Positions 2,452 through 4,008 of a DNA stretch of 64,000 nucleotides are shown here, piece by piece. Below the pieces are notes generated by a model that ran no database searches, was not told the DNA's origin, and worked only from the letters and a program-made list of their open reading frames with translations. Source of the stretch: a virus (taxonomy: Duplodnaviria > Heunggongvirae > Uroviricota > Caudoviricetes). Position numbers and translations under genes: made by a program. Position 1 is the stretch's first letter. Every line of letters begins with the position of its first letter. The stretch covers positions 102,640-166,639 of IMG/VR virus record IMGVR_UViG_3300025838_000019, one strand, 5' to 3'.

Positions 2452-2528
2452 GCCCTCCTATCCCAATTGGTAGAGGAAGCAGTTTCAAACACTGTGTAGT
2501 CTGAGTTCGAATCTCAGGGTGGGCACCA
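2452..2528 (+). tRNA. Type-I tRNA (short variable loop) with Leu anticodon CAA; isotype uncertain
   Basis: Acceptor GCCCTCC/GGTGGGC (one T-T mismatch), D-loop AATTGGTAG, anticodon arm GCAGT-TTCAAAC-ACTGT, 5-nt variable loop, T-arm CTGAGTTCGAATCTCAG, discriminator A, CCA encoded. Confidence 0.6.
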
Positions 2529-2534
2529 TATACA

Positions 2535-2614
2535 AACATTCTAAACTGGACGCAGGATCGGAGAAGGTTGAAAGTGGGTTAGCTACCACAAGTATGCTGG
2601 AGATTAAGAATGTT
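2535..2614 (+). ncRNA. Stem-closed spacer module F (AAACATTCT family)
   Basis: AAACATTCT (2535-2543) is the exact reverse complement of AGAATGTTT (2607-2615 region); homologous to module E; followed by TCTATATGGGTT and tRNA-Lys(CTT). Confidence 0.4.
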
Positions 2615-2621
2615 TCTATAT

Positions 2622-2696
2622 GGGTTATAAGCTTAAGTGATGAAGCAACCGGCTCTTAACCGGTAGAACAGAGTTTGATTCTCTGATGACCCACCA
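2622..2696 (+). tRNA. tRNA-Lys (anticodon CTT)
   Basis: Acceptor GGGTTAT/ATGACCC, D-arm GCTT-AAGTGATG-AAGC, anticodon arm ACCGG-CTCTTAA-CCGGT, T-arm CAGAGTTTGATTCTCTG, CCA encoded. Confidence 0.85.
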
Positions 2697-2697
2697 A

Positions 2698-2845
2698 TTT
2701 TTGAGCTAGACGTTTGGATTGAGTCCCATGTGCGCTAGGTCCCTAATCTTGAGACTGACACACCAGTAGCAACACAAGGTCGTTAAACTCTCCTATACGA
2801 GACAACCTGATGAGTCCTTGAGAAAGATAGTCAGTCGCTCAAAAA
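2698..2845 (+). ncRNA. Stem-closed spacer module H
   Basis: TTTTTGAGC (2698-2706) is the exact reverse complement of GCTCAAAAA (2837-2845); fills the Lys(CTT)-Thr(GGT) spacer. Confidence 0.35.
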
Positions 2846-2853
2846 CCTATAAT

Positions 2854-2927
2854 GCTCTTATCGTATAGTGACATTACACATCCTTGGTACGGATGTTACC
2901 CAAGTTTGATTCTTGGTGGGAGCACCA
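2854..2927 (+). tRNA. tRNA-Thr (anticodon GGT)
   Basis: Acceptor GCTCTTA/TGGGAGC (two GU pairs), anticodon arm CATCC-TTGGTAC-GGATG, T-arm CCAAGTTTGATTCTTGG, CCA encoded. Confidence 0.8.
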
Positions 2928-3098
2928 ATTGTTTTAATTCGGTAGGCACAAATTCAGCGGCTTGCCTTTTAGCGTAAGATGGTGTAAACTCTCTTACTGT
3001 TGTAGAGAATTTAGATTCTTTGTATGGTGGTGCTTTGGCAAATTCCCAAAGATGTGGTTCTGCGGATTTAAGTGTCATGATACAAAGTATTTATTTTT

Positions 3099-3175
3099 GC
3101 CCCGGTGACGGAATTGGTATACGTGTTGGTCTTAGAAACCAAATTTTAGGAGTTCGAGTCTCCTCTGGGGCACCA
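3099..3175 (+). tRNA. Type-I tRNA (short variable loop) with Leu anticodon TAG; isotype uncertain
   Basis: Acceptor GCCCCGG/CTGGGGC, anticodon arm TTGGT-CTTAGAA-ACCAA (perfect), 5-nt variable loop ATTTT, T-arm AGGAGTTCGAGTCTCCT, discriminator A, CCA encoded. Confidence 0.6.
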
Positions 3176-3181
3176 AACATT

Positions 3182-3256
3182 CTGGCGTTAGTATAATGGA
3201 TAATACAGTAGGCTTCTACCCTTCTGATGGGAGTTCGATTCTCTCACGCCGGACCA
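3182..3256 (+). tRNA. tRNA-Arg (anticodon TCT)
   Basis: Acceptor CTGGCGT/ACGCCGG, D-arm GTAT-AATGGATA-ATAC, loop CTTCTAC, T-arm GGGAGTTCGATTCTCTC, CCA encoded. Confidence 0.8.
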
Positions 3257-3311
3257 AAAAGTGTAAACCATTATGTACAAAATGATGGTTTTGTAAAGAA
3301 TAGGAAACATT

Positions 3312-3929
3312 ATGCCAGCAGTATTTCTTGTAAGTGATACACACTTTGGCCATGCCGGTGTATGTCGTTTCACCGATTCAAACACAGGTGAAAAAATTCG
3401 ACCATGGACTGATCCTGCTGAAATGGATGAGGAAATGGTAAAGCGTTGGAACGAAACAGTTCGACCAAATGACAAAGTATATCACCTTGGTGATGTAGTG
3501 ATTAACCGTAAAGCACTTTCAATTATGAGTAGACTTAACGGTGACAAGGTTCTTATCCGTGGTAACCACGATATTTTCCGTGATGAAGAATATAGACAAT
3601 ACTTCCGTGAGCTTCGTGCTTATCATGTAATGAACGGAATGATTCTTTCACATATTCCTATTCATCCGGATAGTCTTGGTCGCTTTGGTACTAACATTCA
3701 TGGACATCTCCACACAGGTCGTGTGATGAAAACGGTAAAACGTGAAAAGGTTAGTAAATATGATCCACGTCCATTTACGGTTGAAGAACCGGAAATTGAC
3801 ACTAGGTATCATTGTGTTTGCGTTGAACAAACAGACTTTAGACCTATCCTTTTTGAGGATGTTATCAAACGAATCAAAGAAGAAGGTGGTCAAGTTGGTT
3901 TTCAAAACGGAAACGGACCAACAATGTAA
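3312..3929 (+). CDS. Calcineurin-like metallophosphoesterase (205 aa)
   Basis: N-terminal SDTHFGH and later GNHD motifs typical of the metallophosphatase superfamily; RBS AGGAAA upstream. Confidence 0.7.
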   Translation: MPAVFLVSDTHFGHAGVCRFTDSNTGEKIRPWTDPAEMDEEMVKRWNETVRPNDKVYHLGDVVINRKALSIMSRLNGDKVLIRGNHDIFRDEEYRQYFRELRAYHVMNGMILSHIPIHPDSLGRFGTNIHGHLHTGRVMKTVKREKVSKYDPRPFTVEEPEIDTRYHCVCVEQTDFRPILFEDVIKRIKEEGGQVGFQNGNGPTM

Positions 3930-3931
3930 GT

Positions 3932-4008
3932 GCGGGTATAGGCCAATTGGTAGAGTCAACAGACTTAAACCCTGTGTAGTGTCGGTTCGAATCCGTCTAC
4001 CCGCACCA
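3932..4008 (+). tRNA. Type-I tRNA (short variable loop) with Leu anticodon TAA; isotype uncertain; paralog of 2452-2528
   Basis: Acceptor GCGGGTA/TACCCGC, D-loop AATTGGTAG, anticodon arm ACAGA-CTTAAAC-CCTGT, variable loop GTAGTG, T-loop GGTTCGAATCC, discriminator A, CCA encoded. Confidence 0.6.

Follow-up and report, generated by a model that had tools for sequence, protein, structure and literature searches.

Three short leucine tRNA genes and their leucine signatures

In textbooks and recent primary papers, bacterial-type tRNA-Leu is described almost without exception as having a long variable arm (type II architecture). In this study, we analysed a 64,000-nucleotide stretch of phage DNA (hereafter, the window; positions 102,640 to 166,639 of the IMG/VR record IMGVR_UViG_3300025838_000019, Caudoviricetes) in which three tRNA genes carry the leucine anticodons CAA, TAG and TAA on a body with a short variable loop (type I architecture). 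An earlier note on this DNA had left two readings for these genes, namely unusual leucine isoacceptors or identity-switched tRNAs that insert another amino acid at leucine codons. Judging from their sequences and those of their relatives, the three genes are very probably working leucine tRNAs of an armless design. They are located as follows:

2452..2528, + strand: tRNA-Leu(CAA), type I, variable loop GUAGU, A73, CCA encoded (ARAGORN; Rfam 47.3 bits)
3099..3175, + strand: tRNA-Leu(TAG), type I, variable loop AUUUU, A73, CCA encoded (ARAGORN; Rfam 61.2 bits)
3932..4008, + strand: tRNA-Leu(TAA), type I, variable loop GUAGU, A73, CCA encoded (ARAGORN; Rfam 50.5 bits)

ARAGORN and Rfam agree on the three genes (Rfam tRNA model RF00005, gathering score 29 bits; E-values from 6e-8 to 9e-12), and ARAGORN places the anticodons exactly where the manual fold of the earlier note had put them. 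Each gene is 77 nt long and folds into a cloverleaf with an acceptor stem of 7 bp, a D stem of 3 bp, a D loop of 11 nt, and anticodon and T stems of 5 bp each. The short variable loops and the A discriminator reported before are also borne out, as the ARAGORN cloverleaves show a 5-nt loop and A73 in every case. The genes have the above-threshold score and the 7/3-4/5/5 stems of canonical tRNAs, lack the long variable arm of type II tRNAs, and combine the features of a type I tRNA-Leu, that is, a variable loop of 4-5 nt, a leucine anticodon and A73. A single U5.U68 mismatch is found in the acceptor stem of the CAA gene. The CAA and TAA genes had been described as clear paralogs; they do have 21 of 25 D-arm and variable-loop positions in common, but only 51 of their 77 positions are identical overall.

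When aligned with E. coli leuW and T4 tRNA-Leu, the three genes are collinear over their full length, and the sole break is a clean gap of 10-12 nt at the variable stem-loop. All of them keep a D loop typical of bacterial tRNA-Leu, AAUUGGUA(G/U)A. Viral contigs supplied 70 distinct 77-nt homologues, which we placed in a gap-free alignment. When the type I cloverleaf is imposed on it, 99.0% of the cells are paired (67.2% in shuffles), and compensatory changes occur in 19 of the 20 pairs. The covariation score reaches 0.848, compared with 0.221 in shuffles, none of 500 shuffles attains the observed value, and sliding the 3' partners by one to three columns lowers the score to 0.175 or less. Moreover, U8, A14, A15, G18, G19, A20a, U33, A35, U48, G53, U55, C56, A58, C61, A73 and the CCA end are invariant throughout the alignment.

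These data bear on the proposal that the three genes are non-translational tRNA-like RNAs or decaying pseudogenes, for instance decoys for host factors, with no role in decoding. The U.U mismatch of the CAA gene is in line with such a proposal, as is the abundance of tRNA-like oddities in the region. Nevertheless, we consider it highly improbable, given the strong compensatory covariation over the whole cloverleaf, the invariance of U33, A35, A73 and CCA, and the restriction of the anticodons to leucine. The match between these anticodons and the leucine codons most used by the phage, together with the presence of identical copies in dozens of contigs, also argues against decoys or pseudogenes.

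In E. coli, leucine identity is specified by A73, the A15:U48 Levitt pair, G18G19, A20a and tertiary contacts that join the D loop to the T loop (Giege and Eriani review, PMC9976931). Neither the anticodon nor the long arm is needed, and armless constructs are still charged (PMC9976931). The full set of elements recognised by the E. coli leucyl-tRNA synthetase (LeuRS), that is, A73, U8:A14, A15:U48, G18G19 and A20a (set according to PMC9976931), is found among the invariant positions of the 70 homologues, and A73 is followed by CCA in 224 of 225 type I leucine homologues. The presence of the leucine identity set in the tRNA bodies supports the first reading of the earlier note, that of unusual leucine isoacceptors.

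A comparison of tRNA bodies points in the same direction. It included 230 unique 77-nt tRNAs of any isotype, and a tRNA was retained when at least 18 of 25 D-arm and variable-loop positions matched any of the leucine genes of the window. The tRNAs that passed this cut-off carry the anticodons TAG, CAA, TAA and GAG only. The same tRNA body moves between both leucine codon boxes and never beyond, a behaviour that is expected if the body, and not the anticodon, specifies leucine. A regular expression for the D loop was also tried as a leucine marker and was discarded in favour of the 25-position comparison, as it was not specific for leucine and matched Ile, Thr and other tRNAs.

According to the second reading, the short tRNA bodies would receive a different amino acid, and TTA, TTG and CTA would be recoded; the nev-tRNAs of nematodes and the CUG-Ser tRNA of yeast are examples of recoding or identity-switched tRNAs. 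We aligned open reading frames of the window with the homologous proteins of T4 and cyanophage S-RIM8, and counted which homologue residue faces each window codon. Leucine occupies 42% of the positions aligned with TTA, 46% of those aligned with TTG and 40% of those aligned with CTA; the values for the other leucine codons are 46% (CTT), 59% (CTC) and 44% (CTG). At TTA, TTG and CTA, as at every leucine codon, leucine comes first among the aligned residues and Ile, Val and Met rank next, and the control codons behave as expected (ATT, Ile 43%; TCT, Ser 38%; GAA, Glu 43%). The window uses the standard genetic code, and no recoding is involved in the finding. In 30 open reading frames of the window, TTG, TTA and CTA make up 69% of the leucine codons. 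The anticodons CAA, UAA and UAG are directly cognate to these three codons and, with wobble pairing, could serve most or all of the six leucine codons.

Besides LeuRS, two synthetases disregard the anticodon, namely the alanyl-tRNA synthetase (AlaRS), which needs G3:U70, and the seryl-tRNA synthetase (SerRS), which needs a long arm and G73. Pair 3:70 is C-G, C-G and G-C in the CAA, TAG and TAA genes, respectively, and hence G3:U70 is absent. As the Ala and Ser determinants are missing from the three genes, LeuRS appears to be the only plausible charging enzyme. The Val, Ile, Met and Phe synthetases read the anticodon, where they need C36, U36 or G34 (established identity rules; PMC9976931). 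A switch of identity might be suspected only from the unusual architecture, and from how little the CAA gene resembles type II tRNA-Leu overall. However, leucine stands opposite TTA, TTG and CTA as frequently as opposite the rest of the leucine codons, there is neither a G3:U70 pair nor a long arm with G73 in bodies that do hold the leucine determinants, the anticodon-reading synthetases mentioned above require C36, U36 or G34, and the body is linked solely to leucine anticodons from both codon boxes. Hence, a switch of identity is extremely unlikely.

Lineage, ancestry and probable loss of the variable arm

The DNA of the window belongs to a T4-like phage. Its family B DNA polymerase shows 49% identity to the cyanomyovirus enzymes and 32% to T4 gp43, and homologues from T4 or cyanophages are likewise found for its UvsX, gp41, primase, ribonucleotide reductase and CobS-like genes. 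At the nucleotide level, a megablast search with window positions 1-7000 revealed no close relative among cultured phages, and the only matches were of the size of tRNA-Pro. We used a metallophosphoesterase gene of the window as a synteny anchor. Relatives of this phosphoesterase are encoded by at least 590 IMG/VR contigs, and the best 80 that were kept are 76-85% identical. The lineage is very abundant in metagenomes and uncultivated. The features that frame the three leucine genes are the following:

262..6326, + strand: tRNA gene cluster holding the three leucine genes (21 genes by ARAGORN and one Rfam-only gene at 2622-2693)
262 (start), + strand: tRNA-Lys, first gene of the window cluster (ARAGORN)
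346-431, + strand: tRNA-Tyr, 86 nt, long arm kept (ARAGORN)
3312..3929, + strand: metallophosphoesterase gene (phrog_547), synteny anchor (Pfam Metallophos, PHROGs)

The gene order of the cluster matches that of two relatives, L008 and L015 (the viral relatives are numbered L006-L202). The additional tRNA at 2622-2693, which ARAGORN does not call, scores 53.4 bits with Rfam and folds as a clean cloverleaf (z = -3.5); its anticodon loop is CUCUUAA, from which the anticodon CUU (Lys) was read by eye. As for a phage-encoded LeuRS, no open reading frame of LeuRS size is found in the window other than that of the DNA polymerase. In agreement with the earlier note, ARAGORN and Rfam detect no other tRNA-Leu within the 64-kb window, and no tRNA-Ser, tRNA-Gln or tRNA-Glu. 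The left edge of the window (1-262) falls inside the tRNA cluster, and the tRNA repertoire is thus incomplete, since relatives have further genes upstream. In the syntenic loci L008 and L015, genes for Gln, Ser(TGA), Ser(GCT), Ile(UAU), Cys and Glu lie directly upstream of the Lys gene, although the second Ser gene is not always present. The missing Ser, Gln and Glu genes are therefore an artefact of the window edge.

The ancestry of the three genes can be followed within this lineage. Outside the variable region, the TAG gene shares 92% identity with a type II Leu(TAG) gene in a relative (L195), and the acceptor stem, T arm and anticodon loop of the two are the same. Copies that are identical to the TAG gene or differ by 1 nt are present in at least 44 viral contigs, and it is 80% identical to an annotated tRNA-Leu of Cronobacter phage GAP31. 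With the TAG gene as query, blastn gave no match in 5,426 E. coli genomes, in a setting where a 77-nt query cannot reach significance (28 Gb). For the TAA gene, which is placed directly after the phosphoesterase gene, the closest relative is a type II Leu(TAA) (82% identical), and the annotated 76-nt tRNA-Leu of Rhizobium phage P106B is also 82% identical. The type II leucine gene found in the same position in L008 has the acceptor stem GCGGGUA/UACCCGC, as in the TAA gene. Of the relatives, eight have a type II Leu(TAA) directly behind the phosphoesterase gene, and four have a type I version there. Finally, the nearest relatives of the CAA gene are the type I Leu(TAG) genes of two loci (L013 and L071), which are 83% identical to it and have the same D arm and variable loop. 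In a neighbour-joining tree, which is rough because the sequences are of about 70 nt, type I and type II genes interconvert repeatedly, with at least 10 changes.

Outside this lineage, distant blastn searches with the TAG and TAA genes against cultured phages gave ungapped matches of 58-77 nt, many of them to annotated tRNA-Leu genes. Short tRNA-Leu genes of cultured phages include the following:

Cronobacter phage GAP31: 78 and 77 nt
Rhizobium phage P106B: 76 nt
Providencia phage PR1 (T5-like): two genes, 74 nt as annotated and 77 nt by ARAGORN
Mycobacteriophage Kykar: 75 nt
Felixounavirus LTH02: 74, 75 and 76 nt
Streptomyces phage Enygma: 76 nt, beside an 82-nt gene
Vibrio phage 1.081.O (T4-like): 74 and 74 nt

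The leucine genes of T4 and T5 are long-armed (87 nt for T4 tRNA-Leu). The statement of the earlier note that phage tRNA-Leu is type II thus holds for T4 but not in general, as short leucine genes are annotated in many cultured phages. Such genes are already in GenBank and yet under-described, and those of the window add further members. We found no comment on armless tRNA-Leu of phages in the open-access papers that were searched, and earlier accounts may exist (for example, in the T5 or KVP40 tRNA papers of the 1980s-90s). The armless design recurs in several families of cultured phages, some of which infect E. coli.

Within the lineage itself, armless leucine genes are common. Loci L006-L085 form an unbiased subset. 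A type I Leu(TAG) pattern served to retrieve the loci numbered L086 and higher, and this biases any count that includes the latter. The unbiased subset holds 53 type I and 43 type II leucine genes, so that about half are armless; by anticodon, the type I/type II counts are 18/3 for CAA, 23/14 for TAG, 10/26 for TAA and 2/0 for GAG. In the full, biased set, both types occur together in 69 of 197 viral loci, and all three anticodons are found in 45 loci, 20 of which are entirely type I, as in the window. The lineage mixes type I and type II leucine designs freely. On the other hand, tRNA-Ser is long in all 191 genes of the related loci, and tRNA-Tyr is almost always long. The retention of the arm in Ser and, for the most part, Tyr fits the rule that only LeuRS can do without it.

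The strict type I Leu(TAG) pattern is rare in cellular genomes, with only 97 stretches in 185,579 bacterial and archaeal species genomes. All 97 are called as tRNA-Leu, are 74-78 nt long and lie, for the most part, within dense tRNA arrays. In these bacterial assemblies (GTDB loci L210-L306), the median is about 7 tRNAs per 8 kb. One of them (L220, CAZKLA010000004.1), binned with an uncultured Aquiluna sp., is a 48-kb contig with 16 tRNAs and a Leu(TAG) that hardly differs from the viral family. This is probably a phage contig that was binned wrongly, or else a hint about the host.

Altogether, the three genes most likely descend from ordinary long-arm tRNA-Leu genes of bacteria or phages by deletion of the variable stem-loop, which left a 5-nt loop ending in U48. 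The bacterial LeuRS reads A73 and the D/T elbow (U8:A14, A15:U48, G18G19 and A20a) instead of the anticodon or the variable arm. Because LeuRS reads neither of the latter, the LeuRS of the host most likely still charges the armless tRNAs with leucine, and the three tRNAs would give the phage its own supply for leucine decoding. Loss of the arm appears to be tolerated for leucine only; phage tRNA-Ser, whose synthetase needs the arm, is always long in our data, and tRNA-Tyr mostly so. The default explanation for arm shedding is a neutral loss permitted by LeuRS.

A different cause for the same deletion would be counter-defence. According to this proposal, the arm is deleted recurrently and under selection, as this lets the set of leucine tRNAs escape host nucleases that recognise or cut the type II variable arm. 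An armless set covering all or most leucine codons would then keep leucine decoding in operation once the tRNA-Leu of the host is destroyed. To our knowledge, no bacterial nuclease is specific for tRNA-Leu or its variable arm. There is a precedent in tRNA-Tyr, a type II tRNA whose variable loop is cut by PtuAB of Retron-Eco7 and Septu; the tRNA-Tyr of phages escapes owing to a different variable loop (PMC12673091, PMC13096335). Mammalian SLFN11 also prefers type II tRNAs, according to a passage of PMC13462974 in which this preference is cited. The repeated interconversion of the two types on the rough tree and the 20 of 45 three-anticodon loci that are entirely type I count in favour of the proposal. 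Neutral loss permitted by LeuRS, or genome streamlining, gives the same pattern, however, 69 loci keep both types, and T4 and T5 retain type II leucine genes. Therefore, we regard counter-defence as a rather unlikely, though testable, cause of arm loss. If true, the patchwork of the two types among phage lineages would be a record of an arms race over the variable arm, and the nucleases in question would be bacterial counterparts of SLFN11, or relatives of PtuAB and Septu aimed at tRNA-Leu. In this sense, the genes offer a concrete connection, open to test, with the recently discovered defence nucleases that cleave the variable loops of tRNAs.

Whatever the cause of the deletion, some observations weigh against the interpretation of all three genes as working leucine tRNAs. 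The CAA gene combines the U.U mismatch with the lowest Rfam score of the three. In the offline similarity comparison, which took in 2,239 unique tRNAs, this gene overall resembles type II Leu no more closely than it does Thr (42.8 versus 47.4 matches). Its leucine ancestry is the weakest case, and is suggested by the D arm, the variable loop and the type I relatives. In addition, the type I tRNA-Leu(CAA) of Streptomyces coelicolor is not charged by the E. coli LeuRS (PMC6614811). Because the E. coli enzyme failed on the Streptomyces tRNA, not every LeuRS takes every armless tRNA-Leu.

Other tRNA-like elements at the locus and in relatives

The tRNA cluster of the window also contains a family of intergenic elements, at 597-662, 1232-1302, 2344-2449, 4291-4392 and about 4396-4560. 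Their ends, AGGAU...CAGCAA on the 5' side and AUCCUGUUG on the 3' side, close a long stem around variable inserts, and two members hold T-arm-like hairpins. The elements have no match in Rfam. They lie among the tRNAs and adjoin an open reading frame at 4585-6024 (phrog_850, 'RNA-binding protein'; DUF2828, DUF7788 and vWA). By analogy with rnaC and rnaD of T4 and the 'tRNA-like stable RNAs' of T5, they may be stable tRNA-like or Y-RNA-like RNAs. We considered whether the DUF2828/vWA protein is Ro60-like, an idea that found no support, as a sequence search of the PDB gave no match. The member at 2344-2449 folds as a closed multi-arm tRNA-like RNA. The Rfam tRNA model gives it 26 bits at 2371-2431, below threshold, and one of its arms has the 7-nt loop CUUAUAA with an anticodon-like UAU. 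This element is an insertion relative to L008, where the Phe gene adjoins Leu(CAA).

Two more structures were noted near the start of the window. Directly upstream of tRNA-Lys, positions 128-264 form a near-perfect hairpin of about 135 nt (minimum free energy of -54.3 kcal/mol, z = -5.07), and none of 200 shuffles was as stable. The sequence at about 793-868 resembles tRNA-Ala, in that it has G3:U70, A73-CCA and an anticodon loop with UGC, and is called by neither ARAGORN nor Rfam. Its D arm is aberrant, with a 4-bp stem, a tetraloop and no 8-9 linker. A normal tRNA-Ala(TGC) occupies the matching place in L015, between Pro and Met, and the sequence of the window is either a degenerate or a non-canonical Ala tRNA.

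The related loci hold further atypical tRNAs. Among them are 51 genes called tRNA-Ile(UAU) with a length of 90-95 nt, which comprise 38 distinct sequences in several subfamilies and sit, in position, just upstream of the window start (for example, L008:2593-2684, L016:1910-2001 and L034:4158-4249). The sequences inspected have an insert of about 20 nt resembling a variable arm, with a recurring (C/U)AGAU motif, and an ACCA end. With a type II-like body and an Ile anticodon, these genes are reminiscent of the nev-tRNAs of nematodes (PMC3333845). In the codon test described above, the ATA codons of the window align with Ile (46%), which gives no sign of recoding. This class could be more novel than the armless tRNA-Leu. 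The relatives L006-L202 also include five genes of 75-77 nt called tRNA-Pyl by ARAGORN, which may be amber-suppressor-like tRNAs, and a 93-nt class of tRNA-Tyr with 17 genes (ARAGORN).

Comparison with known leucine tRNAs

The closest points of reference are the type II tRNAs of E. coli (leuW) and T4 (tRNAL), whose acceptor, D, anticodon and T arms are collinear with those of the window genes. They also have in common the 3-bp D stem, the AAUUGGUA(G/U)A loop, A73, A15:U48 and the leucine anticodons. Unlike leuW and T4 tRNAL, the window genes are devoid of the variable stem-loop of 10-12 nt, and position 37 is A in the TAG gene of the window and G in leuW.

The short leucine genes of cultured phages are the most similar in design. 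Those of GAP31, E. coli phage 4MG, Salmonella phage PVP-SE1, PR1, LTH02, P106B, 1.081.O, Kykar and Enygma are 74-78 nt long and have the same D loop as the window genes. Their anticodons are TAA, TAG or CAA, and A73 is present wherever ARAGORN gave the gene end. The Leu(TAG) of GAP31 even has the AUUUU variable loop of the TAG gene of the window. These phages belong to other families and infect other hosts than the phage of the window.

Leucine tRNAs without a long arm are also known from animal mitochondria, where both tRNA-Leu(UUR) and tRNA-Leu(CUN) are type I, with A73 and A14 as identity elements (PMC9976931). Mitochondrial tRNA-Leu has degenerate elbows and a dedicated LeuRS, whereas the window genes keep the canonical G18G19 and T-loop elements. 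In the laboratory, leucylation of minimalist armless E. coli tRNA-Leu depends on A73 and on D/T tertiary contacts, as reported in the passage of PMC9976931 that cites Larkin et al. 2002. Those tRNAs are laboratory constructs, while the phage genes are natural and under selection. The latter represent a natural and diverse test set for the recognition by LeuRS of tRNAs without the arm. They also call for caution in annotation pipelines, and whenever recoding is inferred from odd tRNA shapes.

Finally, the type I tRNA-Leu(CAA) of S. coelicolor, reported in 2019 as a novelty, is presented in that paper as the first case of one LeuRS charging both types in one cell (PMC6614811). Like the window genes, it has a short variable loop in a bacterial translation system. 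It coexists with type II tRNA-Leu, is charged by a bacterial-type LeuRS and has U8:A14 as an identity element (PMC6614811). The Streptomyces tRNA is cellular and encoded by a single gene, whereas the genes of the window are phage-borne, cover three anticodons and belong to a large family.

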